This document shows positions 23,596 to 64,000 of a stretch of DNA of 64,000 nt, in pieces. Made by a program: the position numbers and the translations under genes. Numbering within the stretch: position 1 is the stretch's first letter; each line of letters opens with the position of its first letter. The notes beneath the pieces were generated by a model. That model had not been told where the DNA came from. It saw only the letters and a list, made by a program, of their open reading frames with translations, and did no database searches. The stretch lies in contig JAUVNS010000015.1 of the NCBI GenBank assembly GCA_030599585.1, positions 41,310 to 105,309 on the forward strand, read 5' to 3'. The DNA comes from Promethearchaeota archaeon (GTDB lineage: Archaea > Asgardarchaeota > Lokiarchaeia > Sigyniarchaeales > SOKP01).

Positions 23596-23640
23596 GATTA
23601 AACGATTAAAACTTTTAACCTGTAAAAACCCTTTAATTGC

Positions 23641-23752
23641 TAATTTTCTGTAATATAATTAATAATTTTCTGTAATATAACTAGTAATTTTCTGTAATAT
23701 AACTAGTAATTTTCTGTAATATAACTAGTAATTTTTTTTTAATATAATTGGT
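23641..23752. repeat. 22-bp tandem repeat (TAATTTTCTGTAATATAACTAG) x~5
   Basis: Three exact and two degenerate head-to-tail units. Confidence 0.9.
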
Positions 23753-23872
23753 AAAAAATGCAAAATATACTCCTATTTGAACCAAAGAACATAGTATCCA
23801 GTGAAATAAATCATACCCCTCTTAGCGAATTTCTTAATTTTTTATTTTTCCCACTTAGTAGTCCTTAGTCAT

Positions 23873-23904
23873 TAATCCTTAATCCTTAATCCTTAATCCT
23901 TAAT
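23873..23904. repeat. 7-bp microsatellite (TAATCCT) x4
   Basis: taatccttaatccttaatccttaatccttaat read directly. Confidence 0.9.
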
Positions 23905-24448
23905 ACAATAATACAATATACTCTATAAATAAACTATATGTAAAATTTTATCAGCTCTTCATATTTACCAAATACAATATTCATCACAGAGCTCCAACCT
24001 CCCTTTTAAAGTTTACCAATATCGACCATAAAATTTTTAATTAACAAATTACTCTAATATTTCGTCGATGAGTTTTTAATTTGTGATCTATCGTTATCCC
24101 TATTACCATCGATAAGTTATTGGATGTGGAAAAATATCTCATCTAACCCTGATGACATACCGCCAATAGCGGACACCGGCCTTATAGAAGTGGATCAGAA
24201 GAGACTAACGTCAAAATGCATGATACCACAGGAAATAAGTGCCTAAAACGACCAATTCCTCGGTTGTTTCAGGAAACCGGTCCAAGCACGAGCAAAAAAA
24301 CATAAAAAAATATTTACCTTACTACAAAACAACGAAAAAAACAACGATTCGTGCTCAAAGGAACACAACTCCCCATAAAAATATGAAAATATACATTATT
24401 TTCGTCTCAATTTTTAATTTCAATCTCTAAATAAGTATTGTCTCCGAA

Positions 24449-24487
24449 TACACAAGCCTTTTCACAGGCAATCTGAATCTTTCCTCA
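24449..24487 (+). other. 5' strand of the pre-23S processing stem (pairs with ~27868-27911)
   Basis: CACAAGCCTTTTCAC...CTGAATCTTTCCTC is complementary to GAGGAAATAAGGGTTCAG...GTGAATCAGGTTTGTG. Confidence 0.75.
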
Positions 24488-26344
24488 AGTAGACGCCAAT
24501 TACGCCATCGCTATTTGGTGGATATCTTGGCTTGGGCACCGATGAAGAGCGTGACAAGCTGCGATAAGCTCGGGTTAGTCGCATGTAGACGCTGACCCCG
24601 AGATTCTTCAATCGGACATCCGCTTGCGGCCCAATAATCCGCAAGATTCCCGTTAGGGAAGGGGAACCCTGGGAAGTAAAACATTTTAGTACCAGGAGGA
24701 AAAGAAAACAATCGTGATTCCGTTAGTAACGGCGAGCGAAAGCGGAACAGATCAAACCGAATCCCTTGGGGAAAACCCAAGGGAGATGTGGAGTGTGGAC
24801 CTCGTACGGCCTAATCAACTAAGGTGAATACCCCTGAAATGTTGAGCCATAGAGCGTGACAGCCGCGTAACCGTAAATTGGAAGGCTGCTGCGAGGTATC
24901 CCGAGTAGTGCGGGATGGTTTTCTCGTACGAACGTGCCAGATACACGCTGGCAAATCTAAATATGTCCCAAGACCGATAGTGAAATAGTAGCGTGAGCAA
25001 AAGATGAAAAGAAACCCGGAAGGGTCGTGAAAAGCGCTTGAAACCAAATAGTTTAGTAAGGATGCAGCCCGAAAGGATAGATTCTGCGCGAATGCGTTCT
25101 GGCGACAGAACATCAGAGTGCAGAGGACTAGGGTTGCATCATCAGTCTGGAATCATTGGCCAGGGAGTTTATAGTAGTGGCGAGCTTAAGTGCCTTACGG
25201 CATGTAGGCGTAGGGAAACCAATATTCTTGCAATCTAATTATCACATTAGAATGAATAGCGTACCAAGGAGTAGTTTTGCTATTCCAACGGGACGTTCTG
25301 ATTTCTCCTAAGGGATTAGACCAGAAGAATGGTCTTAAAGGGCCTAAAGTCACTGCTGTAAAACCCGAAGCCGGTCGATCTATTCCTGGTCAAGATGAAG
25401 TCGCTCGAAAGGGTGATGGAGGTCTGCACCAGTGCTGACGTGCAATTCGCTTGGATGAACTGGGAATAGGAGCAAAAGGCTAATCTAGATCGGTGATAGC
25501 TGGTTCTCCCCGAAGTTGGTGTCAGCCAATCCTCAGGCGAGGTAGCTAGTGGCGTAGAGCACTAATTGCGGAACAGGGAGAAGAAATTCTTCACTCCGCT
25601 CTTAAACTCCGAAACTGCTAGCACTGTAGACCCTGGGAGACGGGTTAGTGGGCGTAAAGTCCATTGCCGAGAAGGGAACAACCTAGACTTGGGTTAAGGT
25701 CCCTAAATGCAGGTTAAGTGTTAAACGAAAGGGCGTTATATTTCTAAAACAGCAAAAGGATAGGTATAGAAGTAACCACTCCCTAACGAGTGTGTAACAA
25801 CTCATTTGCCGAGAAATATAGCCCCGAAAATGGACGGGGCTTAAATCTGCTACCGAGACCCAAGAGCACGGGCGGAAGAACCCCGTGATCTGGTAGGGGA
25901 GCGTCCAGGTTGGGCAGAAGCAGGTGCGTGAGTTCCTGTGGACCGACCTGGAGCGCAGATCCTGGTAATAGTAAAAGCATAGATGGGTTAGAATCCCATC
26001 CGCCGAAAGGGCAAGGGTTTCTTCGCAATGCGTCGTCAGCGAAGAGTTAGTCGATCCTAAGCGCAATCTTAACTGAACTGCGCGAAAGGGAAACAGGTTT
26101 ATATTCCTGTACCATGGCGCTACAAATAGCGGTAACGCATGACTGTATGCTAACAAATCCGGGTAAGTGGAATAGGGTCGTCGTACATCTCCCTATTTAA
26201 ATGTAATAAAGCTGGTAAATAGTGTAAAACTTAGACCCAGCTCAAAGCATGAATAGCCATCCAATTGTGGAAGGTTCCGCTGAGCCCAGGTTTTAATAAA
26301 AAGGCATCAGTAAGAAACGCCGTGATCGTACCCAGAACCGACAC

Positions 26345-26375
26345 AGGTTTCGACAGCACCGTCGAGAACGTCGAC
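26345..26375 (+). other. 31-nt bulge-helix-bulge intron in 23S rRNA
   Basis: Central helix CGAC/GTCG with two ACA bulges; excision restores conserved CCGACACAGGTG. Confidence 0.85.
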
Positions 26376-27275
26376 AGGTGCCCCTAGGTGAGTAGCCTAA
26401 GGCGTATTCGTGTAAAGGAGGCTAGGGAAATCGACAAATTAGAGCCGTAACTTTGGGATAAGGCTTGCTTGGGAACTTCTTCACGCAGCTTCGGCAGTGT
26501 GCGGGGGTACCCAAGTCGCAGTAACTAGGGGGGGACGACTGTTTAATAAAAACATAGGTCACTGATAGAGCGAAAGCTTGTTTACAGTGGCTGAAACCTG
26601 GCCAGTGGCAGTTTGATCAATCCGGGTTACAACCCGAGTAAGTCCTGCTAAACGCCGGGAGTAACTATAACTCTCTTAAGGTAGCCAAATGCCTTGTCTG
26701 GTAAGTTCAGACGTGCATGAATGGTCCAACGTTCTCCCTATTGTCCCAGCCTTCTGACGATTGAAATTACACTCCGGCGAACGGTCCGGAGATACCTGGT
26801 GGGACGAGAAGACCCCGTGGAGTTTTACTGCAGCCTGTTGTTGTGGTTTTGAACTGAATACAGAGTGTAGTCGGGAGCGTAGATGCCGTAATTTCGGTTA
26901 CGGTGGAGCAACCTTGGAATACCGGCTTTCCTTTTTGAAATCACTAACGGTGCACTAGCATCGGACATCCGCAGGTGGGCAGTTTGGCTGGGGCGGCTCA
27001 CTCTAGAAAAAATATCTAGAGTAACCAATGGTCAGCTCAGGCGGGTCAGGAATCCGCTGAAGAGTTTAAGAGCAAAAGCTGGCCTGACTGGATTCTGATT
27101 ACCAAGGAATCCTGAGGCTAACGCCTGGTCTAGCGATCCTTAACTGTGCTCGTGTGGCTGGTTGAGGTGATAGAAAAATTACCCCGGGGGTAACAGAGTT
27201 GTCACGAGTAAGAGTTCCTATCGACCTCGTGGCTTGCTTCCTCGATGTCGGCTCTTCCTATCCTGGGAGCGCACA

Positions 27276-27305
27276 TTACACAAATCGACTCGATTTGCGT
27301 GCGCA
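27276..27305 (+). other. ~30-nt insertion (probable intron) in 23S helix 91; boundaries approximate
   Basis: 49 nt between CCT and AAGG where about 18 are usual; internal hairpin CAAATCGA/TCGATTTG. Confidence 0.6.
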
Positions 27306-27879
27306 TAACTCCCAAGGGTGGGGCTGTACGCCCATTAAAAGGGAACGTGAGCTGGGTTTAGACCGACGTGAGTCAGGTCGGATTCTATCTACCAGGTATG
27401 TGGGATGACTGAGGGTAAGGGAAAATCAGTACGAGAGGAACATTTTGCCGGCGCCTCTGGTGTACCGGTTGTCTGACAAGGCATCGCCGGGCAGCTACGC
27501 GCTAACTGATAAGTGCTGAAAGCATCTAAGCACGAAGCAGGCCCCGAAATTAGTCATCCAATCTTACTTCATATTGTATAATGTATATGCTATGTATTTA
27601 GCTTAGCTGAGTTAGGAAGGACCCCCTGTGAGGACCGGAAACTAGCTCGAAGTGTGCGTGCGTGAAAGCGTGCGTGTGTAGAAAAGGTTATAAGTGAAAT
27701 GGATGGTGTGTTAATTGTCGAGAGCGGGGCGCGGTGACGCGAACCGTGGGAGCGAGACGAGCGCACCCGTATAAGACGGGATTGGTGAGATGGGGGTGTA
27801 CGTGCCGAGCTTTCGGGCGAGGTATTCAGCCCGCCATTCTCAATAGCGCGAGTGTGTGGCATTCGAAAGAGGAAATAAG

Positions 27880-28024
27880 GGTTCAGGCTTAGAGTGAATC
27901 AGGTTTGTGTGAATGGCAGACAATGCGTTTGTTTAGTAGTTTAGTTTGTTTCGAAGTTAAGAAGTGAGATGGAGGTATTTTGTATTTGGTTGGGTATGGG
28001 TTGTGTTCCGGAGTTTTTACTCCA
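27880..28024 (+). repeat. 23S trailer / first copy of the array repeat (core 28003-28012)
   Basis: 27880-28012 is near-identical to 59559-59693; ends in GGGTTGTGTTCCGGAGTTTTTACTCCA. Confidence 0.9.
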
Positions 28025-28285
28025 TTTTTTATTTTCTTTCTTTTAGTTTTTATGTTCTTTGTAGCGTTTGTGTTTCGTTGTGTTCCTTTGTTATTTTTTC
28101 TATTTTCTTATCCTGAAGTCCGTTGGGGTTGTGTTCCGGAGTTTTCACTCCAAATTATTTTTTTTGTAATTTAACTCAATTTACACTCAGCTCGATTATT
28201 TTCCTAGAAATAAAACCCCTAGTGTATCTAAAATCTTTTTCTAAAAAGAAAAAGAGATTTAATAAAAAGGCAATTAGATGTAAAT

Positions 28286-28447
28286 ATGCCGAAATGTGGA
28301 TTTTGTAAGCGCGAAATTTCTATAAAAGATTTTGTAAAGGGAATGGGTAAGGGCTATAATGTTGAGAAAACAATGCATTGGAGAAAGAAGGTCTGTATGT
28401 TCAGCTGTCCCCACTGTGATACAATCTTAGGCTTCGGGTTTGATTAA
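28286..28447 (+). CDS. 53-aa zinc-finger microprotein (not in the ORF track)
   Basis: MPKCGFCKREISIKDF...MFSCPHCDTILGFGFD; two CxxC; fills exactly one repeat-to-repeat unit. Confidence 0.75.
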   Translation: MPKCGFCKREISIKDFVKGMGKGYNVEKTMHWRKKVCMFSCPHCDTILGFGFD

Positions 28448-28657
28448 GAAAATAAGGAGTGTGATAGAATGTTTGTATTGCGTAGGGTTGTGTTCCGGAG
28501 TTTTCAATTCCATAACTTTTTATTTATTTTTATTTAAAATATTATTTATTGTTTAATCAAAACCTAGCATATTTTAATACAAAAAAAATATAATATTGAT
28601 ATAGTCATTATTAGATATAACAACCGAAATTCATTTTAAAAAAGGTAAAATATCGAT

Positions 28658-28822
28658 ATGTTAGTCTGTAAAATCTTAAAAGGGCAAATGGATCGTGTAA
28701 AAGCAGAAAAAGACATCAACAGTTTTCTCTCATCAATGCCGTTAGAGTTAGAAGATTTTATCATTTCTCAAGTTGCACGGAATAGTAAAATCGTTACAAC
28801 AATAATTTACAAAGCGAAGTAA
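28658..28822 (+). CDS. 54-aa small protein (not in the ORF track)
   Basis: MLVCKILKGQMDRVKAEKDINSFL...VTTIIYKAK; AAGGT SD-like motif upstream. Confidence 0.6.
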   Translation: MLVCKILKGQMDRVKAEKDINSFLSSMPLELEDFIISQVARNSKIVTTIIYKAK

Positions 28823-28908
28823 AAACGGTCTAAAGAATATAAATTTTAAATATTTTTTATTTTTCGATTTCTTTAATATTTAAATCCAATAAATCTAAAT
28901 TTTATATA

Positions 28909-29553
28909 ATGACAAATATTTATGAAGGTTGGGCACGCTTTTATCAAGAACCGAGATCGACTTTTTCCATTAAAAAAACTGGTTTTATATTTATTTCAGA
29001 AAATTTGCTAACGTTCAAGTCTTATGAAAAAGGAGTATTCTATGAAATTCCCTTTTCCCAAATGAAAGATATTAGTATGGATAAGTATTGTATAAAGATT
29101 TTTACTGAAAATGGTAATGAATATAGCCTCTTTCCTTTAAAAAATAAAACAACTCAAGATAAGAAAAGAATTCCTTACATATTTAACATGCTAACTGAAT
29201 TGAGAAAAGGACAACCTATTGAAGAGCTTAGAATTATTGAAAAACTTAAGCAGATAATGAAAGTTTCATCAAAAATAAGCGTTAAAATGTTAAAGGAATT
29301 ATTTAAATTGGAAATAGGAAAAACGTACGAGATTGTTTATAACTGGGCAAGTAAATTTGGTTTTACAGTCGAAGGAGATTATTTAATTGTAAATGAATCA
29401 GCAGTTTTAGAATTTATTAAATTGCTAGATGACAGACCTGAAGTAGATACTAAAATCGAGGGAGGAAAAACAAACTGTTCTTATTGTGGAAATTCTATTG
29501 AGGTTAGTTTAAAGATTTGTCCATATTGTGGGAATGAAAATGTTAAGTTTTAA
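28909..29553 (+). CDS. Hypothetical protein, PH-like N-terminus, winged-helix-like middle, C-terminal zinc ribbon
   Basis: CSYCG...CPYCG; domain guesses for the rest are pattern-based. Confidence 0.65.
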   Translation: MTNIYEGWARFYQEPRSTFSIKKTGFIFISENLLTFKSYEKGVFYEIPFSQMKDISMDKYCIKIFTENGNEYSLFPLKNKTTQDKKRIPYIFNMLTELRKGQPIEELRIIEKLKQIMKVSSKISVKMLKELFKLEIGKTYEIVYNWASKFGFTVEGDYLIVNESAVLEFIKLLDDRPEVDTKIEGGKTNCSYCGNSIEVSLKICPYCGNENVKF

Positions 29554-29751
29554 ACTTATTAACTTTTTTATTTTCTTTCTTTTTATTTTTGTAGTATTTG
29601 TAGCGTTTGTGTTTTGTTGTGTTCCTTTGTAATTTTTTCTATTTTTTCTGTTATTTTCTAGTTTCTTTTAGGTTTAAACCTTAAATACTTACAAACATGT
29701 TATAATCTATTAAATCCAGCCTTCAAACAAATTATTTTATATAAGAAAATT

Positions 29752-31230
29752 ATGAAAACTTCAAAAATTACTTCTATATTCTTACCCTTATTCTTTTTCC
29801 AAATTATTATTGGTGTAAATTTATTTCCCCTTGTAAATAATGATTTGACAAATCTACCAGTTATAAGTGGCAACTGGGAATCTCCTGTTGAGTTAGGATC
29901 TTTTACGTACTCTGATAATGTCCGAAATACATTTATTTTAAATGATACTGCTTTTATTTTGGTTGATGTTTATGGAATGGTTATAGTCGATATTAGTAAT
30001 CCGTTGAACCCACAATATTTAGGAAGATATGCAGAATATTCCAAAAATGTTCAAGTTATAGATGATATTGCCTATCTTACAAGTGGTAATGGTTTTTTCA
30101 TTGTTAATGTCTCGGTTCCTAGTTCCCCTTCTTTACTGGGAGAAAATAACACTTTTGATTGTGATGGGTTATATGTTGACGGAGATCTTGCTTTTGTTGG
30201 TTGTCGATATTATGGAATGGTTATTTTCAATATATCCAATCCCACTATGCCTGACTTTGTAGGAGAATACGTAAATGGTTCAAATCAGGATTATGACGAT
30301 ATTTTTGTTGCAAATAATACTGCTTATATTGCTGACTACCAAGGGGGAAATCTTAAAATAATCAATGTAACGGATCCTTATAATCCTGAAATTCATGGAA
30401 TCTACGATTATGATACAGTTGAGGGTGGTCCAAATGATGTATTTGTGGTAGATGATATCTGTTATCTCTCTGATTACGATGGTGGATTAAAAATAATTAA
30501 TGTAAGCGATCCCGAGTCTGTAGTTACGTTAACAACATACAATTCTGGAGGTTGGGTATCAGGGGTGTTTGTTTCAGATAATATAGCTTATGTCTCAGAT
30601 TATCTAACAGGAATAAGAATTTTAAATGTATCCAGTCCTTCCAGTCCAGTCTTATTAGGATCATTTTATGATCCCAGTGAAAATGCTTATAGTATATTTT
30701 TTGCTAATTCAATTCTGTATGTTGGTTGGGGTATGGAAGGCTTGAAAATTATTGACCCGGGTTATGATTCTGATGAAGACGGATGGTCTGACCAAGTCGA
30801 GATCTATTTACATCAAACCGATCCAGACGATCCAAACAGTTTTCCAGACGTAATAGCTCCAGTTATTACGATTATTTCACCACAACCTTCTACTAGTTAT
30901 GGAATAGATGCTCCTGATTTTAATATATCTATCATTGAATCAGATTTAGATGCTACTTGGTATACAATACAAGGTGGTTTATTTGAATATCAATTTACTG
31001 GATTAAATGGCACGATAGATCAAGAAGGATGGGATGTGACTCCTGAGGGAGAGATTTCTATTACATTTTATGCTGAAGATGGAGCGGGAAATATAGGGAG
31101 TGAGAGCGTCGTTGTTATAAAAAGCATTCCTACTCAACCAGAAATCCCCGGATATAATATTTATCTCTTTCTGCTAGGAATTCTTTCAGTTGCAATAATA
31201 CTGCTTGTTAAAAAAATGAAAAAATTCTAG
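29752..31230 (+). CDS. Surface protein with LVIVD repeats and Loki-CTERM-like anchor
   Basis: Signal peptide; repeated GLKIINVSDP units; DSDEDGWSD Ca motif; IPGYN + TM + KKMKK tail. Confidence 0.85.
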   Translation: MKTSKITSIFLPLFFFQIIIGVNLFPLVNNDLTNLPVISGNWESPVELGSFTYSDNVRNTFILNDTAFILVDVYGMVIVDISNPLNPQYLGRYAEYSKNVQVIDDIAYLTSGNGFFIVNVSVPSSPSLLGENNTFDCDGLYVDGDLAFVGCRYYGMVIFNISNPTMPDFVGEYVNGSNQDYDDIFVANNTAYIADYQGGNLKIINVTDPYNPEIHGIYDYDTVEGGPNDVFVVDDICYLSDYDGGLKIINVSDPESVVTLTTYNSGGWVSGVFVSDNIAYVSDYLTGIRILNVSSPSSPVLLGSFYDPSENAYSIFFANSILYVGWGMEGLKIIDPGYDSDEDGWSDQVEIYLHQTDPDDPNSFPDVIAPVITIISPQPSTSYGIDAPDFNISIIESDLDATWYTIQGGLFEYQFTGLNGTIDQEGWDVTPEGEISITFYAEDGAGNIGSESVVVIKSIPTQPEIPGYNIYLFLLGILSVAIILLVKKMKKF

Positions 31231-31521
31231 GGATTAAACCAAATAAGCGATAAAAATGTTTTGATATGAGAGATGATAAGTAAGTAGGTTAAGGTTGTGT
31301 TCCGGAGTTTTTACTCCAACTTTTTTATTTTCTTTCTTTTTGTTTTTGTAGTATTTGTAGCGTTTGTGTTTTGATGTGTTCCTTACGTTAATTTTTTCAA
31401 TTTTCTTATCCTGAAGTGCGTTGGGGTTGTGTTCCGGAGTTTTCACTCCAAACTTTTTTATTTTAGATAAATTAAACAATTAATTCTCTTTTTATATCGC
31501 TTCATTTTGTGTCTATCATTC

Positions 31522-49900: not shown

Positions 49901-50840
49901 GGTTGACGTATTTTCCAAAGGCCGTGTGATTATCGCCAAAATCCCATATATACATTAGCGAATTATAATCGCTTTCAGTGTCAACACTTAGTTCTGCGTT
50001 AAATTCTATGCCGTCCTCTGATATTACTTGATCAAAGTAAGCTTCAGGATGTGTGTTAACAATTTCTATATATTCTGTTTTTTGAGATAAAGCGCCTTGA
50101 TCGTCGAAAATGGTAATTGTAACTGGATATATACCTGCGTTTTCCCATTTATGAACTATTGAATTTTGAAGAGATGTTGTTTGGTTATTATCTGCGAAAT
50201 TGTAAGCATATTTTAGAGCTCCAAATTCTAAATCTACTCCGGATTCAATTAAGTCTACGACGCTTACCCTAGCAAGTTCGTCTTCGTGCGCGGAATTTGG
50301 TACCGAAACTTCAAATTGTGGAGCATTATTCTTGATTTCAATAAATAGTGCCTTACTGATAGAAAATCCATTTTGATTCCACACGTGAATTAAAGGCGTG
50401 TATTTTCCTTGTACATCATAGGAATGTCTAATGTTATTGGAACTGTGGTTTAACTCTACGCTCGTTCCATCCCCGAACACTATGGCTCCTTTCGAAAAAC
50501 TTCCTATAACAGTCCAACTAAAGGTGATGTCTTCATTTACGTCTACTTCACGTTTATTGCCTTTGAACACAACATCAATGTTAGTTTGTATTAGTATGAA
50601 ATACAATCCAGAAAACATCGCGAAAAGCAGGACACCAATCAGTAACGAAGCCTTCGCTTTTCTGGACTTGAATTTTTTTACCAAGTTATTCCGCTTTTCT
50701 TGTTGGTACCCTGGCAAGCGAAGATTCTTCCGACTTTTCTTACCAAAAATTGTAGGTTGGAATGCTTGTTGCCAAAAAATTTGCCTTCTTTTTTCTCTTC
50801 TTCTTATCTTTTTAGCTGAATTTTCAGTTTTATTGGGCAT
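43932..50840 (-). CDS. Giant (2302 aa) membrane-anchored surface protein with PKD domains, DxDxDG Ca-binding repeats and internal plus C-terminal TM bundles
   Basis: YIWDFGD/HAYDTSGQYTV PKD motifs; repeated DTDGDGL.D..E; hydrophobic clusters. Confidence 0.85.
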   Translation of the reverse strand: MPNKTENSAKKIRRREKRRQIFWQQAFQPTIFGKKSRKNLRLPGYQQEKRNNLVKKFKSRKAKASLLIGVLLFAMFSGLYFILIQTNIDVVFKGNKREVDVNEDITFSWTVIGSFSKGAIVFGDGTSVELNHSSNNIRHSYDVQGKYTPLIHVWNQNGFSISKALFIEIKNNAPQFEVSVPNSAHEDELARVSVVDLIESGVDLEFGALKYAYNFADNNQTTSLQNSIVHKWENAGIYPVTITIFDDQGALSQKTEYIEIVNTHPEAYFDQVISEDGIEFNAELSVDTESDYNSLMYIWDFGDNHTAFGKYVNHAYDTSGQYTVELCVKDDNGALDRTSKTIYIHNDQNYRIEKNETEGMIDLEVLGPFTLPQNIEGQMVNLDVEAYDSLENEPTLSYSWYDQNGVHISNNKRPSILLDDGDYSFTLNVSNQNGQVASENITLMVNNIAPEVFVSNYVYNGPNIGEKLELNAYGYDSVFDIDKLKFYWEITDGDNNYTYSDNIGKATSTMTFTCTDTAIYRGQVKVVDPSGKESVAIFIVNVIIDNNKNSVPDNIEQLLGHTGESLETFSDADNDLISDEYEQWILGTNFVNPDTDGDGLCDGLDSSGIGELSIGTNPLNEDSDYDLLKDSIEFYGWNVSINFFEGSKTLFVSSEPLIFDTDRDGLSDYEEYQTGSNPRLKDSDGDLLEDSIDPFPINYDQDADFLSDKIEIDIGTSLNNSDSDMDGIKDGEEFYGWGLLGFRTNPLEADCDRDFASDGSEMKFYTVTLENPNNHEIRVNVSNPVSLHFPYMFQKATTAQISVALSFGEYGASQNEEYGIKDENVKNLTVTIRHEGYNAILFETTTNRTRYFSHVIDVSEIMNNISLSFNYYGNYILEVNDPTAGCLVEQFELEFCRYLDPHDEDFDNDGILDGVEMNLLVEGTQKIDVKDTYDTTQRIINSTEFNSNTTTTYQLDIPQIGRIFSAELHLAFESIGVIHTGTIVEVELAKKYVDNRLEKSILIDITQQNNYDNYEWYSNTIDLFELFQDKSILDVYGEYSFTVRLESSEANQDQLALLEFYIETDTYIEAGPLDTHAWITDPALHDTDSDGWSDSYEIFTTNTNPLNKDTDGDGAFDTKDRDPLRNIILEISPVFASYRNQAWPTTDPLLKIGIYLQINDIIDPNGVDENNKVGFFTTSKRATTEAYGAGAYITHHTAWWNEGEGYRYYIDISDDVTLQSNQVQFFFTLWEIIVFGDLNRFDGVWYSDFYDLDSSLETQALVAQHTGQFGRTDEIMVNIKKITVDKVNTVAIYSENNTLFNGHYQQQERMNVFQLHIIDSGVGTPFVQGANAIVIPTSLFTKTKINAFIENGLLDQTILYSNIEGEFEFYSIDRDGNIVDEECGDADFVFVRYQMTSQEAMELLDLLLTCAINQTLDENNQTLTDLSIAYTCVSTKFNGTSAVLLNVPNTVSKFILWAGGYEDSSYGNAPNPYNPVFFWLFLLPFILPTIGLIMIFSLTIISITQLNDNNANGVGLILLTFLANLLWCLIRAALIVVAYICLALEVLTISIIFLGIGVTLDLTSIFSEFECDWGINWAIPYGVDTRIAFIELEMADYDVRVEAYITWTYWEYFDIYFPLLTMDTKLGSILEDFMGADSNVTTPPELGCGYDHLGGLRYDFHALYRHQPQGYAPDYVTLVLVSPSGIVYNYSMDETPGQSFDTYYNWVRFNRTVDFGQDFDFDQRNGQWHYCFITKASVVNRTTRWPWCGYAIGPLFHDNRSYFLSSYLDPFSGYIDSEFEFTATGCDFLDRLTPEQVYLKLKWPNETITTFPMSLASTYNYEEMSFNTYSRTLNFSNYISIDEPTTLNYYYEAVFSDGSVSVLWDYQTIEDEENLEPEDEYIDEGIEFEYIPCWFEGPLLKPRIIGTNLPPIIWKWYVEDLTWNRLLSEDSESPVLSPVSDEFILRFWVYIEDPDGTHEQHWNNGFEFLPKLTLFNLDHPNDPLNPINMKWTGGHYGPGPEGYDEYFIDVFGDGHYAYKYEQSSDLNTYNFTSGAWGFSFEVEDNQAHNTKVNTDKRIWHMGSFENMKNTFFYGHPNGLGMEGIVGAVIMTVSYITTTFLAVCKSPKIQIAAQIIAATMAAVNIVFDFLAYINFAFTTSDMGSLIGLGFHMFVKSLGFLTALIFSNKDGGGFNFNLITKFSGFLMALLIVDLNSDVAGTNWEENEDGIFVPSQENNPPTWNDLLGGYPMMIVSFLSSVVGLTSTLVLTSGAARSSVGTKNIKTVMIVHTVISTLIMVFCFFTYFTNSGFSILANELITMGGF

Positions 50841-50914
50841 ATAAGCAATAAAAAGTGAATGTATATAAAAGAAAAATAGCTAAAAAAAAAAAATTTAATT
50901 TAGGAATATATCTC

Positions 50915-51103: not shown

Positions 51104-51439
51104 TACTCAAGATATGATTTGAGTATTCACTTTCCAAATTGCTAAGACCTCAATTCAATGAATTGGTAAAATTCTTCGCAGAAGAATCTCTAATAAGCGC
51201 TCTTGCTTGTTAGGGGGAGTCTTATTATATAGGGATGCTCTATTATCGCTTTTAGTCCTATATTATTACTTACTAGGTAATTTCACTATTTATGTTTTCA
51301 TGTTCATTCTGGAGTTTTAACTTAAAGTGAGCTGTTAGGTGTAGGGGTTGTGTTCCGGAGTTTTACTCCAAATTAAATTTTCTACCATCGTTTTTCTACA
51401 ATAAAGTTAAATTTTTTTTTGGTTTATCTTATTATAGTT

Positions 51440-54142: not shown

Positions 54143-54491
54143 TCTAGTTTCACCAGAAGAAAATAGACAATTGTGTAATTAATTTATGATGATAAATATT
54201 TAAAATTAATGCATAGTTCATTCTTAAGATATAATCTCAATTTGTTCCGGAGTTTTCACTCCATTTTTTATTTTCTTATCCTGAAGTGCGTTGGGGTTGT
54301 GTTCCGGATTAGATTTTTTTTATGTGTGTTTTTTTTGAATTTCACAGAAATCTACCAGTAAAAACCTACGCTTACTACTAATTAATCAATGAAGGTTTAA
54401 ATAGGAGTTAACACAATTTTTATACATACCGTCTCAATACGCATGGCGATAAAAAAATGCTAAAAGAATATGGAAATTAGAAGGTGCTTAT

Positions 54492-54776
54492 ATGACAATT
54501 GCCAGAGGAGAGAAATTTAGGAGCAATTGTTGTAGAATTTCAATTGGACTTATCGTTTGTTTATTCGGCGTTACTTTTTTATCAATATATTTAGAAGGAT
54601 ATGGTTATATAAGCGGTGGATTCTCTGAGAGCCAATTCTTTTTGAGACAAAGTATCAGCTTGTTTTTATCTATAGTATTACTACCACTCAGTATGTTACT
54701 TATTTTTTGGGATAAAATAGTAATTTCCTTAAATAACATAATGAGAAAAAGGAGAGAAAAACATAAACCCCGGTAA
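54492..54776 (+). CDS. Small 2-TM membrane protein (cassette)
   Basis: Hydrophobic ORF with AGGTG SD, between cores 54299 and 54820. Confidence 0.65.
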   Translation: MTIARGEKFRSNCCRISIGLIVCLFGVTFLSIYLEGYGYISGGFSESQFFLRQSISLFLSIVLLPLSMLLIFWDKIVISLNNIMRKRREKHKPR

Positions 54777-55023
54777 AAAGCAGTTAAAAACAAAACCATT
54801 TAATTCAAGTTGAGAAGTTGTGTTCCGGAGTTTTTACTCCAACTATTTTTTATTTTTTGAATTTTCACAGAAATCTACCAGTAAAAACTAGCGATTACTA
54901 CTAATTAATCACTGAAGATTTAAATAGGGGGTAAATTAATTTTTATACATCTCTGTCTCTTGATAACAGTAATAAATTAGCAAAAAACAAGACAAAAAGA
55001 GCTAAAAAAAGGAGGAAAAAAAA

Positions 55024-56031
55024 ATGGTAAAACAAGTAAAACCTTTAGAATACGGAGAAAAAGAACCACCTAAAATAAATAAAAATAATAAAATGTCGGT
55101 AGAATTTAAAGGAAAAGAATATACGATTAAAAAAAAGGGGGGACTTTTAACGCTTAATCTTTCCATGAAAAAGATCAAGAGTATTTCAGAGATAAAAGGA
55201 CTCGAAAGTCTAAACAAGTTACAAGTATTAAACCTTAGTAATAATTCCATCTTTGAGATCGAAGGACTCGAAAGTCTAAACGAGTTACAAGTATTAAAGC
55301 TTAGTTATAACGCTATTTTTGAGATCGAAGGACTTGAAACCCTAAAAAATCTAAGGGAATTACACCTTGATTCGAATCGTATTGTAAAAATTAAAGGGCT
55401 CGAAGCTCTTAAAGACCTAAAATTTTTGAACCTTGCTGCCAATTCAATTTCTGAGATTGGAGGGCTTGATACCTTGACTAATTTAGAAAAATTGTACCTC
55501 GAAAGTAATAACATAGAAATTATTAAAGGACTTGATACTCTAGAAAACTTGCGCACATTAAGACTAGAGGGGAACATGATTGCTAAAGTAGAGAGTTTTC
55601 AAAACAAAGTAAAATTATACTCCCTCCTTTTCAGTGGAAATCCATTATATGAACAGGTTAAAGAGATGTTTGGGACGTCAAATGCCCAAAATCTGATGGA
55701 ATTTAGCCAAATGTCTGATAGTGAGATATTTACTAAAGCACAAATAATCGGTGAAAAAAATAGAGAGCAGAGACTTGCCCAGGAAATTCAAGAGAGAAAA
55801 AGAATAATAATAATGGCTAACAATAAAAGTGTAGTATGGATTATTTTGGGACTTATTGGGGGGATTATGTTTAGCATCAGCGTTTCCTATTTATTAGGAA
55901 CCCTTGTGTATGCTTTTGGTTTTGGTTGGTTAGGGGCGTCTGTATCCATCGCCGACATTCTGCGTTATCTTATACCCACGCTTATTGGAGCGGTGTTGTG
56001 TCTCATAAGCTATTTTTATTTGAGAAGTTAG
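55024..56031 (+). CDS. Leucine-rich repeat protein (SDS22-like) with C-terminal TM segments
   Basis: 22-aa LxxLxLxxNxIxxIxGLxxL repeats; GGAGG SD. Confidence 0.9.
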   Translation: MVKQVKPLEYGEKEPPKINKNNKMSVEFKGKEYTIKKKGGLLTLNLSMKKIKSISEIKGLESLNKLQVLNLSNNSIFEIEGLESLNELQVLKLSYNAIFEIEGLETLKNLRELHLDSNRIVKIKGLEALKDLKFLNLAANSISEIGGLDTLTNLEKLYLESNNIEIIKGLDTLENLRTLRLEGNMIAKVESFQNKVKLYSLLFSGNPLYEQVKEMFGTSNAQNLMEFSQMSDSEIFTKAQIIGEKNREQRLAQEIQERKRIIIMANNKSVVWIILGLIGGIMFSISVSYLLGTLVYAFGFGWLGASVSIADILRYLIPTLIGAVLCLISYFYLRS

Positions 56032-56198
56032 TTTGTTTTGCGAGATTTCAGTTGAGAAGTTGTGTTCCTGAATTATACTTTTTTTACCGATTAATGTTAT
56101 CTGATATCGCTACAGATTAATGTTGTGATGTAGAAGATTTTTATATGTTACCCGGGCTTATGATACTTATCGACTGACAAACCATGGTTTAAGAGTCA

Positions 56199-56408: not shown

Positions 56409-56642
56409 GAGCAAGCGTGGTTTGTTTCGAGATTGAATGTTAGGGTTGGGGTGTGTGTTCCGGACTATTTTTATTTTTTATTTCAGCACTTTTAAATTTA
56501 TTTACCAAAGGTTAATTTTAATTGAAAGGCATATGAAATCCATAGAAAGTGAAACCTGCAATCAGTATATTTATATATTTCTTTATCTTTTTCCTATATT
56601 ATATCACGATAGATAAAAATCTCGGTAATTTATGAAAGCATA

Positions 56643-57110
56643 ATGAATACAAAAGCAAGAATAATATCAATAGTAGTTATTTCATTTTTTATAGGATTAA
56701 TTATAATAGCTTTTCTTATACCTCTATTTATGTATTCATTCATATTTCATTCGTATAAAAATTTCCGCCATCTTTTTATGAGCTATAACTTTTATATATT
56801 TTTAGACCTTTTTGTCTTAGTTATTATCTTATTTTTATATTTGTATTACCTAATAAGACCAATAAAAACTTTAAATGGAAAAAAAACCCTCACTATAATT
56901 GAGATGATTTTAGGAGGAATTTTAGTTATTTTCCCATTAATTGGAATTGGTGTTCTATCCTCTTCATTTTTATCGATATATTTAGAGGGTTTTTTTTTAT
57001 TTTATTTGGTAGGATTGTTATTTTACTGTTTTTTACTCATACCTGGTACAATTTTATTTATTCATGGATGGCACCTACGAAAAAACCTCCGAATTGAGGG
57101 CTCCCTCTGA
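56643..57110 (+). CDS. 4-TM membrane protein (cassette)
   Basis: Between cores 56455 and 57162. Confidence 0.65.
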   Translation: MNTKARIISIVVISFFIGLIIIAFLIPLFMYSFIFHSYKNFRHLFMSYNFYIFLDLFVLVIILFLYLYYLIRPIKTLNGKKTLTIIEMILGGILVIFPLIGIGVLSSSFLSIYLEGFFLFYLVGLLFYCFLLIPGTILFIHGWHLRKNLRIEGSL

Positions 57111-57181
57111 GGGTTAGTGGTGAGCGAAATTTTGCGAGATATTTTGTATTGAGTAGGGGTTGTGTTCCTGATTATGTTTTT

Positions 57182-57604: not shown

Positions 57605-57872
57605 TTTTAAGTTAAGTTATTATGTTAGTATAATAGAATAAAAATCAGTTAAGCTCATAAATTTTGTCCAAATAATGTAAATCAGCTTAAGCTGTTTTAG
57701 CTTACTAGATATTTCGAGATTGAAGGGTGGGAGCGTGTTCCGGGATTCTTACTCCATTTTTTTACTATTTCAGATATTAACTTAAAATCTAATAATTCGT
57801 CCTGAAAGGTAAATTCAGAGGCTGATTTCAATGCAAATTTCATTAAAAAAGAAACATTAGGTTCTCAAACGA

Positions 57873-58669: not shown

Positions 58670-59428
58670 TTATGGTATAATCCTTTTATCAAATTCTGGT
58701 AGGTCATCTGGCGGCCATCCTCTGGGAGTTTTGTACTTTTTTACATATCTATGATCGCACATTGGAGCTCCGAATCCTATAGCTTGAGTACGAGAGAATC
58801 CAAATCCTAAAATATGTGCTTCTGAGAAGTCAGCTAAACAAAAGAAGGGAATATATTTTTCAGCATCTAATCTCTTAAAAACTTTATGAAACCCACATTC
58901 ATGAAAATTAAATCCCCACTCAAAAGTCTTCCCATCACCTTCAACATAATCTGCAACCCAATCGTCGGGATAGTTCCTTAATTTTGACGTCTCACATAAC
59001 CTTTTCGCATAATCAATATAAGCAGATTCAAATGGATATTGGGCAGGATCTTTTCCAATCTTTTCCAGACTATTTTTTCTGATAGTATTATGTAGATCTC
59101 TGAATTTATAATAAAATTCCCCTATCTCTCGATGTGTGTATCCTTCTTTTTCTAGGATTCGAAACATTGCGAGGCTAGACATACCACCAACAAGGAGACT
59201 GGTAAAAGAATTTTTTCCCCCGCCAATATAAGGTATTTCCAGAATTAATTTCTCATATTCTTCTTTCATTTGCTCGAACATTTCCTTGATTTTAGCCTCG
59301 TCATACTTTTTTTTAAGGATATCTAGTGCAATTTTAATGTGGTTAGAAAAGTTTTTCATCAACTTTGGTTTTCTCTTAATATAATAATCTTTTACAACTT
59401 TAACAGTCATAAGTAAATTTTTCACCAA
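58670..59428 (-). CDS. L-2-amino-thiazoline-4-carboxylic acid hydrolase family protein
   Basis: ECGF...FCLAD...RTQAIGFGAPMCDHRY cysteine pattern. Confidence 0.75.
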   Translation of the reverse strand: MVKNLLMTVKVVKDYYIKRKPKLMKNFSNHIKIALDILKKKYDEAKIKEMFEQMKEEYEKLILEIPYIGGGKNSFTSLLVGGMSSLAMFRILEKEGYTHREIGEFYYKFRDLHNTIRKNSLEKIGKDPAQYPFESAYIDYAKRLCETSKLRNYPDDWVADYVEGDGKTFEWGFNFHECGFHKVFKRLDAEKYIPFFCLADFSEAHILGFGFSRTQAIGFGAPMCDHRYVKKYKTPRGWPPDDLPEFDKRIIP

Positions 59429-59558
59429 ATTTAAGCTACTAAATGGATTAAGACTACCTCAAATATTGATTCTTTCGCTTTTAAAATTGTTTATTCTTGC
59501 TAAAAGAAGTGATCAAAAAATGGAAATCCATGCAATCAGTAATTCCGTTTGAACTCAA

Positions 59559-59693
59559 GGTTCAGGCTTAGAGTGAATTAGGTTTGTGTGAGTGGCAGAC
59601 AATATGCGATTGTTTAGTTAGTTTGTTTCGAAGTTAAGAAGTGAGATAGAGGTTTGTATTTTGTATTGTGTTGGGTATGGGTTGTGTTCCGGA
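59559..59693 (+). repeat. Orphan copy of the 23S 3' trailer ending in the repeat core
   Basis: Aligns along its length with 27880-28012. Confidence 0.92.
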
Positions 59694-59828
59694 TTATATT
59701 TTTTTTATAGTATTTTTCTATTTTAATAATTAGCTTAAATCACAAAATTTCATCCTGAAAGGTAAATTCAGAGTCTGATTTTCATGAAAATTCTACTATG
59801 AAATTGGAATTCTCTAAGGATTGAGATT

Positions 59829-60404
59829 CTAAGATTTTTTCAATATTTCAATAATTCGCTGTATTTGTTGATTTATAGTATTCAAAATTTTAATGATGCT
59901 TTCTTTACCATCTTCGGATAAATCACTTTTAGGGCTTCCTTTTACGATTTTAGCTTTAAGCGGTGGTATAGGCATTCTTTGTTGAATTTTCTTTATTTCT
60001 GATTTCAGAACCATTGCTTCAGGAGAAACAGAGCCCATTTTTTCACTATTTCTAGTATATCGCATGTCGTCTAAAACTTCTGTCACAGGCATTGATTTTA
60101 GTTCAAAAGCATCTAAGAATTCTTCAACTTCATCCCCTTGATCCACAGATACAATTTTAACACCACCTTTTACTTCTTCTCTGAGTTCTGTAGCAATTCG
60201 TGCACTTATGAATCTTTTTTTAACTGGAGATGCTGAGCCCTTCCAAATGAAAATTCTTCTTAAATCCCATCTTAATATAACAAGCACTTGTTTTGCGTGT
60301 AAAATAGATTGTAAAGTCTGAGGTGTAATATCTTCAACTTGTTTTCTTTCACCACTCTCCTCTAATTCAAAAACTAAAAAATCCTCTAATTCTCTAGCTG
60401 CCAT
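59829..60404 (-). CDS. Gelsolin-domain protein (single domain plus C-terminal extension)
   Basis: RIFIWKGSASP..KRF.SA..A.EL...VSVDQGDE.EEFL.AF. Confidence 0.75.
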   Translation of the reverse strand: MAARELEDFLVFELEESGERKQVEDITPQTLQSILHAKQVLVILRWDLRRIFIWKGSASPVKKRFISARIATELREEVKGGVKIVSVDQGDEVEEFLDAFELKSMPVTEVLDDMRYTRNSEKMGSVSPEAMVLKSEIKKIQQRMPIPPLKAKIVKGSPKSDLSEDGKESIIKILNTINQQIQRIIEILKKS

Positions 60405-60663
60405 TTTTATCTAACTAGTTTTTAAAAAAATTAGTCATTAACTATTTATTATAACAAATTTGTATAAAAATTTTAACTTAAATCTAATTGTATCATCTGT
60501 TCGTTGAAATTTTATAACAAATTATAAATTGATGAGATAATAAGTAAGTAGGTTGGGGTTGTGTTCCGGATTTTAATTTTTTGTTTTGTTTTGTCTGTAT
60601 TATTTTTACTATTGTATTTCTTCCATCCCAATCCATTTAAACGAACGTGGAGAATTATATTAT

Positions 60664-61461
60664 ATGTCTCATGCTAATGTTTGGACCGAGAACTTTTTTG
60701 GTACCCGAGGGGGTCATATCCGGTATTTTCGGACTGGTGGCGATAAACCTTCATTGCTCTTACTGCATGGTGCGATGAGTAATGGTTTGTGTTGGAGTCG
60801 AGTTGCAAAATCGTTAGAATTAGACTTTGACATTATCCTACCAGATGCCCGTGGCCATGGGAAATCGGTTTCTCATCAACAGGACTATTCTTTATTTGAA
60901 TTAGTTGAAGACACGGCAGAATTAATTACCCATCTACAAATTGCTCCCGTAATTGTAATGGGTCATTCAATGGGCGCACAAATGGCTACTGAACTGGGTG
61001 CTCGCTACCCTGCTTTAGTAAAAAAGCTCGTTTTAGAAGATCCCGGCTATTATTTTAAAAATCCTTCATTTTTCACGTTGCTTTCTTATAATTGGATTAT
61101 CCGCCGCAATAGGAGGTGGGATCTATCTCAAATTCGAAAATGTTGCGACAAACTAATCAAAGGGTGGCACGAGGAGGATAAACTTTCATGGGTGGTAGCT
61201 CAAAAGCAATTTGCCGAAAATGCTGGGAAATTTTCTAAATCTTTCGATCCAAAACGGGAATGGTATTCGATTTTTCCCAGGGTAAAGGTCCCCACTTTGC
61301 TTTTAGTTTCTGAAAATGGGATTATGACAAGATCAGAAGCATCCGAGTATGTTCTTGCGTTTGGCGCTGCGAGCTACGAATATATTGAAGCTGCGGGTCA
61401 TATTATCCATTTCGACAATTTCGAAGTATTTATGTCGACTGTCCGAGCATTTTTGGGATAA
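60664..61461 (+). CDS. Alpha/beta hydrolase
   Basis: LLLHG, DARGHG, GHSMG, AGHIIH; ATG at 60664. Confidence 0.9.
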   Translation: MSHANVWTENFFGTRGGHIRYFRTGGDKPSLLLLHGAMSNGLCWSRVAKSLELDFDIILPDARGHGKSVSHQQDYSLFELVEDTAELITHLQIAPVIVMGHSMGAQMATELGARYPALVKKLVLEDPGYYFKNPSFFTLLSYNWIIRRNRRWDLSQIRKCCDKLIKGWHEEDKLSWVVAQKQFAENAGKFSKSFDPKREWYSIFPRVKVPTLLLVSENGIMTRSEASEYVLAFGAASYEYIEAAGHIIHFDNFEVFMSTVRAFLG

Positions 61462-61646
61462 CGTTCTCAACTTAGTTTTTCGAGATTAAGAAGTGAGCTG
61501 GAGGTTTGTATTATGTATTGCGTAGGGTATGGGTTGTGTTCCGGAGTTTATCTTTAGTAATTTATTTTAAAAACGCTTTGAGTTTAAGTATTAATACTAA
61601 TGCGCCTTATATTTCTTTGAATAATTAATTTTTAACGTGTTTGTAA

Positions 61647-61958: not shown

Positions 61959-62304
61959 GGTATTAATGTAGTGGAAGTCTTGGATTTTGCAAGGATGACA
62001 CTGTGAGATGAGATGTATTGATTGCGTAGGGGTTGTGTTCCGGAGTTTAATTTTTTTATTTTATTTTTATTTTTCTTTAGCTTTGTTTTACCATTTCCAA
62101 CTTATTATCATTTTCTGACAAAAACGTACAAAATTTAAATTTTATAATTTTTTGTACAAGTATTTAAAGACTTACGAGTAAAAATTCTATTTTACAGTAG
62201 TTCCACCATTTTTACTAGTAAGTTTCGCTGAAAGGTTTATATACAATTTTGTCGATCTATAGTATAATCTTTGCACTTTTACGAATGAAAATTAGATAAA
62301 AGCC

Positions 62305-62637: not shown

Positions 62638-62689
62638 ATTCTTGTTTCGAGCTTGAAGGGTGGGGGTGTGTTCCGGAGTTTTTACTCCA

Positions 62690-62798
62690 TTTTTTGTTTT
62701 ATTTCTTTGTTCTTTTTTACTTACCTTTTTCGCTAAATTTTCCGTCTTATTGAGCATATCCCAAAATTCAATTTAATGAATGTATATAAAAGAAAAAT
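62690..62798 (-). pseudogene. Promoter plus first ~19 codons of a paralogue of the giant PKD gene, cut off at the repeat
   Basis: MLNKTENLAKKVSKKEQR vs MPNKTENSAKKIRRREKR; 22-bp identical upstream segment (62777-62798 = 50856-50877). Confidence 0.75.
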
Positions 62799-63729: not shown

Positions 63730-63940
63730 ATCTTTAATTTCACCCTTGCGTGTTATTTTATTATTTCATTTTTTACTATTTAATTTTTTTGATACCGTTC
63801 TAAATTGATATAATAAACTGAGGTGGGAGTGTGTTCCGGAGTTTTTTGAATCATGATAAAGGTAATGACCATCTATTTTAAATAGGAACTTTGTGTATTA
63901 TAAGCTAGTCCAATACTAATAACTTAAGAAGATACACAAA

Positions 63941-64000
63941 ATGAGAGAAATTAGGTTTTCAAAACTTGGTATCCTAATAGCGATATTTGTGATAATAGCA
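63941..64000 (+). CDS. Start of a membrane/secreted protein (3' partial)
   Basis: MREIRFSKLGILIAIFVIIA following core 63831. Confidence 0.45.
   Translation, partial: MREIRFSKLGILIAIFVIIA

Follow-up and report, generated by a model that had tools for sequence, protein, structure and literature searches.

Gene capture at a fixed site is known for tRNA genes and for integron platforms. In tRNA-gene (Islander-type) islands the target is a stable-RNA gene whose 3' part is regenerated while a displaced fragment stays behind in direct orientation; repeated use of the site gives a polar array, relatives differ in content at the locus and an empty site is found (PMC4383910, PMC10872708). Integrons also hold polar arrays of mostly single-gene cassettes, each with a co-oriented repeat, reshuffled at one anchor site, and integrase-less clusters of attC sites (CALINs) have been described from Asgard MAGs (PMC9668308). 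Insertion with long target duplication has been described from varied sites as single events, mostly of restriction-modification genes (Furuta, Abe and Kobayashi 2010, PMC2853133). Large variable islands have also been described directly beside rRNA genes: SAR11 HVR2, in a 23S-island-5S layout, is a replacement-type surface-polysaccharide island for which rRNA genes are proposed as homology anchors for exchange, and HeimM2, a single element, carries a homing-endonuclease-like gene.

A full-text literature search found no published description of cassette arrays bounded by rRNA tails. Here, a locus of this form is described behind the 23S rRNA gene of an Asgard archaeon. The window, that is the whole stretch of 64,000 nt that was analysed, comprises positions 41310-105309 of contig C3 of a short-read metagenome-assembled genome (MAG; G000) of 4.85 Mb in 52 contigs with approximately 30% GC, rated 100% complete with 8.9% estimated contamination. 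A first-pass annotation, made from the sequence alone, had reported a copy of the 23S 3' trailer 31.7 kb from the rRNA gene and had offered two origins for it: an att-type duplication bracketing a 31.7-kb insertion, or a copy made from the processed trailer RNA. Coordinates below are those of the window unless a contig is named.

The 23S rRNA gene and its leader-trailer helix

The genome contains a single 23S rRNA gene, which was also the only Rfam match between 23.5 and 64 kb (gathering threshold and E<=1). The features at this gene are as follows.

24496-27863, plus strand: 23S rRNA gene, 3368 nt (Rfam RF02540, 2524.8 bits)
24355-24495, plus strand: 23S 5' leader, one strand of a long processing helix; single copy in the genome (RNAduplex, cofold, inverted repeat)
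27864-28035, plus strand: native 3' external transcribed spacer (3'ETS), with the 3' strand of the helix, a core (27998-28012), a hairpin (28010-28023) and a T-run

The contig also carries the 16S gene, 50 kb upstream. No 5S rRNA gene reached Rfam significance anywhere in the genome (91 candidates scored; MAG rated 100% complete), and 5S has likewise been a problem in Heimdallarchaeum (Wu et al., PMC8813620). The 23S gene is long for the 2987-position Rfam model, and so carries approximately 380 nt of insertions, as expansion segments or small introns. Upstream of it, a 22-nt unit, TAAnTnnTAATTTTCTGTAATA, occurs in five tandem copies (23634-23743), followed by a run of TCCTTAA repeats at about 23866-23900; these lie 750-860 nt 5' of the gene and might have a promoter or regulatory role for the rRNA unit.

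Approximately 150 nt 3' of the 23S gene are complementary throughout to approximately 140 nt 5' of it, forming a leader-trailer helix of about 140 bp. The duplex between the leader (24330-24500) and the native trailer was predicted at -118.6 kcal/mol, against -55 +/- 6 for shuffled partners (RNAduplex). At its far end the trailer carries a 15-nt core, GGGTTGTGTTCCGGA (27998-28012), followed by the hairpin GGAGT-TTTT-ACTCC (28010-28023) and the T-run, and this hairpin and T-run together score as terminator-like. The core pairs with GGAACACAACUCCCC (24359-24373) at the 5' end of the leader strand and thus forms the base of the processing helix. The combination of a processing-helix strand, the core and a terminator-like end identifies the unit that is copied along this locus as the 23S 3'ETS. 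No canonical bulge-helix-bulge motif was placed by eye in the minimum-free-energy leader-trailer duplex. The 3'ETS is conserved throughout the genus (alignment A4) and the leader/3'ETS duplex is retained in four species (-91 to -114 kcal/mol).

A near-complete second copy of the 3'ETS

Two further stretches of the window carry long 3'ETS copies.

59551-59693, plus strand: near-complete orphan 3'ETS, from the bulge to the core, followed by TTATATTTTTTTT (alignment, BLAST, RNAduplex)
61472-61568, plus strand: third 3'ETS copy, 5'-truncated, 83-84% identity, beginning 10 nt past the stop of the alpha/beta-hydrolase gene 60586-61461

The copy first described as 59559-59693, matching 27880-28012, is real and extends 8 nt farther in the 5' direction, to 59551 and 27872. 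Pairwise alignment and BLAST of 27872-28012 against 59551-59693 gave 87% identity over 147 columns (89% over 131 aligned bases; E 4e-44 to 8e-45), and a genome-wide BLAST search found these to be the only full-length 3'ETS copies in the 4.85-Mb genome. The proximal copy begins 9 nt 3' of the 23S gene end. The homology starts at a bulge of 4 nt in the trailer, with a 7-bp helix on either side as read by eye, and stops directly past the CCGGA of the core, in agreement with the earlier description of a match running from the stem bulge to the core. The earlier statement that the copy includes the strand pairing with the 23S leader was also borne out, with a predicted duplex of -101.4 kcal/mol between leader 24330-24500 and 59551-59693 (shuffles -55 +/- 6).

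No rRNA lies 5' of the distal copy, as had been noted from the sequence, the sole Rfam match being the gene at 24496-27863. A lost second 23S gene was considered as the source and rejected: there is one LSU gene, the distal copy adjoins no 23S body, and the genome has no second 23S leader that would hint at such a loss. The leader pairs with its own trailer (-114 kcal/mol) and with the distal copy (-101) more strongly than with foreign trailers (-77 to -91), which suggests covariation and an origin of the distal copy in this lineage; in keeping with this, the nearest relative of the distal copy is the trailer of the same genome (89%).

The distal copy sits between two minus-strand genes, one ATC-hydrolase-like (58670-59428) and one a 191-aa ORF (59829-60404) with no Pfam match. 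It most likely has no role in 23S maturation, and in this position no terminator would be needed.

The assembly around the copy was also considered. The longest exact run shared by the two full-length copies is approximately 30 nt (by eye from the alignment), and a 126-nt overlap between contigs C3 and C32 points to a final assembly k of about 127, which together make a mis-join inside the repeat unlikely. Two Logan contigs with the flanking genes end at either edge of 59551-59693, so the distal copy is bridged by no independent assembly; a look-up of the TTG-start protein for independent assemblies gave no match.

The 3'ETS copies form a polar array

A profile search (nhmmer) of the whole genome placed 23 of 27 family hits in an array behind the 23S gene, which upholds the proposed link between the repeat family and the rRNA locus. 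The window holds 19 core copies between 28003 and 63831, all on the plus strand, where 0.04 would be expected by chance, and every core copy inspected in the array had this orientation. Those considered below are listed here.

27999-28165, plus strand: double-core block (core, T-rich spacer, core), left copy of a 171-nt direct repeat; 90% identity to 31293-31463
31293-31463, plus strand: right copy of the 171-nt direct repeat; a 3.3-kb unit (28166-31292) lies between the two copies
51341-51383, plus strand: core copy between the giant PKD gene and a TIR gene
54243-54308, plus strand: two adjacent core copies (54243-54277 and 54294-54308)
54817-54856, plus strand: core copy past ORF 54492-54776
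56034-56085, plus strand: core copy, CCTGA variant, directly past the LRR gene 55024-56031
56450-56464, plus strand: core copy
57140-57171, plus strand: core copy past ORF 56643-57110
57712-57771, plus strand: core copy between NUDIX and methyltransferase genes, both on the minus strand
60534-60574, plus strand: core copy between the 191-aa ORF and an alpha/beta-hydrolase gene
62014-62066, plus strand: core copy, left joint of a one-cassette indel relative to G002
62663-62705, plus strand: core copy, right joint of the same indel; abuts a truncated gene start (62703-62798)
63826-63840, plus strand: last core copy of the window; the array goes on into C32

C3 ends with the same 126 nt with which C32 begins (window 63874-64000 = C32:1-126), and this overlap lies inside the array. 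C32 holds three further tail copies and then a remnant, TTCCGGA plus the hairpin, at C32:10393, after which a conserved flank begins. The array is therefore approximately 46.4 kb long, from the 23S end to C32:10393, with 22-23 co-oriented 3'ETS pieces, and continues 14.7 kb past the distal copy, which is the longest of these orphan pieces. The overlap at the C3/C32 break is of the k-1 type, which suggests a branch in the assembly graph, possibly from strain-level cassette variation there.

The orphan fragments are long and variable (7 to ~300 nt). Their 9-13-nt core is conserved far better than the remaining sequence, the core, hairpin and T-run together are much more conserved than what adjoins them, and several copies start exactly at (T)GTTCCGGA. 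In the plus-strand cassettes inspected, the ORF stop lay within about 5-60 nt of a tail, and several tails, with the distal copy among them, are placed between minus-strand genes.

Three or four family members occur away from the rRNA locus (two on C23, one on C22 and a weak hit on C26). Those on C23 are two co-oriented cores around a minus-strand subtilase gene (C23:83827-85980), beside an Mrr-type endonuclease gene and near a contig end, and constitute a small secondary site; the further copy is at C22:126955.

Two other repeats were seen among the cassettes. The stretch 62703-62798 matches 50786-50877 (98 nt, 77.5% identity) and repeats the first codons of the giant PKD gene together with the sequence ahead of them. 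The match breaks off exactly at the tail 62663-62702, leaving a gene stump truncated at the border with a tail. Another repeated module, approximately 100 nt long and containing TCCTGAAAGGTAAATTCAGAG, lies 3' of hairpin-less cores at 57760-57839, 59713-59792 and C32:6473-6570, and was also seen in metagenome contigs L032 and L035 and in genomes G048 and G056; for some cassettes it may represent a conserved left end, or else it may be a 3' element of the minus strand.

Gene content of the array and search for mobility genes

The array contains ordinary accessory genes on both strands (Pfam, ORFs >=80 aa). Their products include LVIVD, DprA, PRTase-like, TPR, 2302-aa PKD, NosD/TIR, LRR and NUDIX proteins, as well as a methyltransferase, an ATC-hydrolase-like protein, alpha/beta hydrolases, an XPD-like helicase, TrmO and a Gtr1/RagA-like GTPase. 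The interval between the two full-length 3'ETS copies (28013-59550) includes defence-like genes and the GC-richer giant gene. The eukaryote-signature gene for the Gtr1/RagA-like GTPase (C32:9426-10391) is a single tail-bounded unit, the last cassette before the flank; this cassette is present in three relatives (G002, G014 and G048) and absent from two (G016 and G056).

No integrase, transposase or other mobility gene was found in the array and both its flanks among the scanned ORFs (Pfam, >=80 aa; several had no match). Likewise, Pfam named no reverse transcriptase among the scanned array ORFs, several of which matched nothing in Pfam. The phage-integrase family PF00589 was not found near the array; its only two members in the genome are on C31 and at C32:210 kb, about 200 kb away. 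A Pfam search also found no recombinase in the arrays of G011, G020 and G038 or at the minor C23 and C22 sites. The repeats are G/T-rich and almost devoid of C. Three of them, scored on both strands as single-stranded DNA, formed no attC hairpin (minimum free energy 0 to -4.3 kcal/mol, z -1.4 to +1.4), and no known RNA family other than LSU was detected by Rfam at E<=1 over 23.5-64 kb.

The same locus in related genomes

The upstream order PanE, DUF72, 23S is kept in G008, G016 and G020. In G016 the site is empty: the hairpin and T-run of the native 3'ETS directly join the flank that follows C32:10393 in G000. Co-oriented tail arrays abut the same conserved flank in G002, G014, G048 and G056, with other genes inside. 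Content at this locus therefore ranges from about 0 kb (G016) to 46 kb (G000) between conserved flanks, DUF72/PanE on one side and C32:10.4 kb onward on the other, as in an additive flexible genomic island, where conserved flanks enclose content of variable kind and size at the same locus.

Differences between relatives follow the tails. G000 and G002 both have the methyltransferase/ATC-hydrolase unit and a pair of small-ORF units, which are arranged in another order in each, and the two genomes differ by exactly one cassette bounded by two cores. At this indel G002 has a single repeat, which is similar to the left G000 copy on the 5' side of the core and to the right copy on the 3' side, the similarity switching at the core itself. 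The nested 3.3-kb unit 28166-31292 is missing from metagenome contig L031, in which the 3'ETS joins a homologue of 31293 onward. This unit thus has the marks of an insertion with long target duplication, namely the 171-nt direct repeat around it and an empty site.

Orphan copies in relatives can reach into the rRNA gene. In G020 the last ~124 nt of 23S and the 3'ETS occur again 2 kb downstream, and a comparable orphan is present in G011, the 23S portion being about 124-130 nt in the two. Single-gene cassettes with an orphan 23S end and/or 3'ETS a few nucleotides past the stop codon were found on L032, L034 and G049 (L011), and the L034 cassette has AT-rich, TATA-like sequence upstream of its ORF. 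Over all loci the orphan-tail 5' starts range, in clusters, from the equivalent of G000 position 27733 (about 130 nt inside 23S) to about 28006, and the 3' ends fall at the core or terminator wherever BLAST could trace them; several matches break earlier, where the middle of the tail has diverged.

Beyond the relatives in this genus, repetition of the rRNA tail was seen in one genome of another family. This closed genome, G038, repeats its own unrelated 3'ETS at +4.7, +19.7 and +23.2 kb, always on the plus strand and nowhere else in the genome, among LRR, LVIVD and defence-type genes and with no integrase near the repeats. No repeat of its own 3'ETS was found in G032.

Two further observations concern single relatives. 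On G005:C91 (L019:3120-3319) an orphan 23S end plus 3'ETS of about 200 nt (74% identity) sits in another chromosomal context, where blocks syntenic to G000 contigs C34 and C50 meet; tails are therefore not strictly limited to the 23S locus in every species. On L011 (G049:C192) two paralogous small membrane ORFs (118-450 and 1624-1884; 110 and 86 aa) run into an orphan tail, their stop codon being the TAG inside CAGGCTTAG of the processing-stem strand.

Origin of the array

The target is intact, its co-oriented 3' fragments vary in length and end where the functional unit ends, one relative has the site empty, and content varies at the one locus; together these features form the tandem-accretion pattern of tRNA-gene islands (PMC4383910, PMC10872708). 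We consider it probable that 59551-59693 is a displaced spare 3'ETS, the most complete displaced or duplicated tail in this genome, at a unit border of a hypervariable array that grew by repeated DNA-level insertion at the 3'ETS. Each insertion would leave an intact tail beside the 23S gene and a partial tail in direct orientation beyond the inserted genes. The intact tail would preserve rRNA processing, and older tail copies would be displaced outward as the rRNA tail was regenerated. Later recombination between tails would then delete, move and swap units among genomes. In plus-strand cassettes the tail would probably double as 3'UTR and terminator.

Within this reading of repeated insertion, the most likely engine is host homologous recombination or gene conversion, with the tails serving as portable homology, either through a single crossover of a popped-out circle or through a double crossover between flanking tails. 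The main alternative engine, possible and clearly the less likely of the two, is a trans-acting site-specific recombinase that would cut at the palindrome-containing core. The near-invariant 9-13-nt core and the copies starting at (T)GTTCCGGA make such an enzyme a serious alternative. Conservation of the core beyond the rest of the copies does not follow obviously from plain homologous recombination, and fits a site-specific enzyme or a separate function. Junctions always inside TGTTCCGGA would point to a site-specific enzyme, and junctions spread along the shared tail to homologous recombination.

A bolder form of the argument gives the core at the helix base the part of a recognition site in an undescribed, integrase-free and dedicated gene-capture system. 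We regard this as rather unlikely. Such a system would work through a trans-acting enzyme, or by use of the leader-trailer helix or of the rRNA transcription stop, and would stack and exchange single-gene cassettes behind 23S across Asgard archaea, the Gtr1/RagA-like GTPase cassette among them.

The first-pass annotation had seen in the two copies a possible attL/attR pair around a single 31.7-kb island, which would have been brought in by an integrase whose attP carried the rRNA tail. They are indeed the sole full-length pair in the genome and in direct orientation, the interval between them holds defence-like genes and the GC-richer giant gene, and a regenerated target with a displaced fragment is the logic of tRNA-gene islands (PMC4383910). 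However, about 12 more tail copies lie inside 28013-59550, one unit in it (28166-31292) is nested with its own 171-nt repeat and its own empty site in L031, and the methyltransferase/ATC-hydrolase unit just inside the bracket is placed elsewhere in the G002 array. The two copies are also only 87% identical, with indels, there is no integrase, and an empty site for the 31.7-kb bracket itself was not found among the sequences compared. The array runs 14.7 kb farther to a real outer remnant, so that the true outer bracket is the native 3'ETS and C32:10393, about 46.4 kb apart. One island of this size is therefore improbable: the idea of a target-type duplication of the rRNA tail survives, as a direct tail copy, and that of one 31.7-kb insert does not.

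The conservation of the core, hairpin and T-run far above their neighbours could instead reflect a role as RNA, the orphan tails being kept as a shared 3'UTR/terminator module or as antisense partners of the 23S leader and spreading by selection; the antisense variant would couple the expression of cassettes, or rRNA processing, to each other. A terminator-like score for the core with its hairpin and T-run, the position of the ORF stops directly ahead of the tails in the inspected plus-strand cassettes, and the duplex that the distal copy can still form with the leader (-101 kcal/mol) are in keeping with this. Yet several tails lie between minus-strand genes, with no plus-strand gene that would need a terminator, and the fragments of 23S body and core remnants of as little as 7 nt make sense only as scars. 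Since a role as RNA leaves the empty site and the reshuffling unexplained, it can be at most an addition to repeated insertion, and as the whole explanation it is very unlikely.

Still less can be said for the other origin first proposed, in which the element would be processed trailer RNA copied into DNA, or cDNA that was primed at the pre-rRNA 3' end and is truncated at its 5' end. The variable 5' starts, together with ends at the core or terminator where traceable, do resemble 5'-truncated retro-copies, and the homology of the distal copy begins at the bulge of the processing stem. Against this, orphan copies in relatives contain up to about 130 nt of mature 23S, duplicated blocks pass the T-run (27999-28165 = 31293-31463), and the AT-rich, TATA-like sequence upstream of the L034 ORF argues that this cassette is not an mRNA copy. 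With no A-tail on the copies and no reverse transcriptase named by Pfam among the scanned array ORFs, an RNA origin is remote.

Chimeric joining of the rRNA trailer to an unrelated contig in assembly or binning has a negligible probability, in spite of the short-read origin of the MAG with its 8.9% estimated contamination, the contig end inside the array and the two Logan contigs that break at the distal copy, because the copies differ at 13% of positions and by indels, with no shared exact run above approximately 30 nt as read by eye, a final k near 127 is indicated by the 126-nt overlap of the contigs, the flanks on either side are unique and agree with the Logan contigs up to the repeat edges, and the same architecture recurs in independent MAGs, metagenome contigs and a closed genome.

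If repeated insertion at the 3'ETS is the right reading, the end of an rRNA transcription unit is a site of gene capture and exchange in these Asgard archaea, a role already held elsewhere by tRNA genes and integron platforms and played here by cassette-scale arrays with no visible integrase. The locus gathers LRR, TIR, defence-type and eukaryote-signature genes, and its content varies among species of one genus, which would make it a concrete and testable route of accessory gene flow in the archaeal lineage closest to eukaryotes. In practice, orphan 23S pieces can mislead rRNA annotation, and the repeats break short-read assemblies exactly at the 23S-tail locus.

Comparison with known systems

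An integron was ruled out as the nature of this locus by the absence of IntI (no PF00589 near the array) and of an attC-like single-stranded DNA hairpin in the three repeats folded. The likeness to integrons and CALINs lies in the polar array of mostly single-gene cassettes, each with a co-oriented repeat, at one anchor site and in reshuffled order. In contrast to them, the repeats here are C-depleted with no attC fold and derive from the neighbouring rRNA gene, there is no IntI, and upstream sequence of their own appears to be part of the cassettes.

Insertion with long target duplication (PMC2853133) shares with this locus direct duplications of more than 30 bp, the lack of a transposase or integrase and an empty site in a relative, but here one site has been reused, leaving about two dozen repeats. 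SAR11 HVR2 and HeimM2 resemble it as large variable islands directly beside an rRNA gene, whereas an array of rRNA-tail repeats and cassettes was seen only here, the available portions of the descriptions of those two islands mentioning none.

In layout the locus resembles tRNA-gene (Islander-type) islands. A stable-RNA target, a regenerated 3' part and displaced fragments in direct orientation (22-23 here) are common to both, as are a polar array from repeated use of one site, an empty site and content that differs among relatives at the locus. Unlike in those islands, the target is the 3' end of the 23S gene with its 3'ETS and not a tDNA or tmRNA gene, the array encodes no integrase, many units are single genes of 0.5-2 kb, and the fragments, 7 to ~300 nt long, carry a strand of the rRNA processing helix and a terminator.
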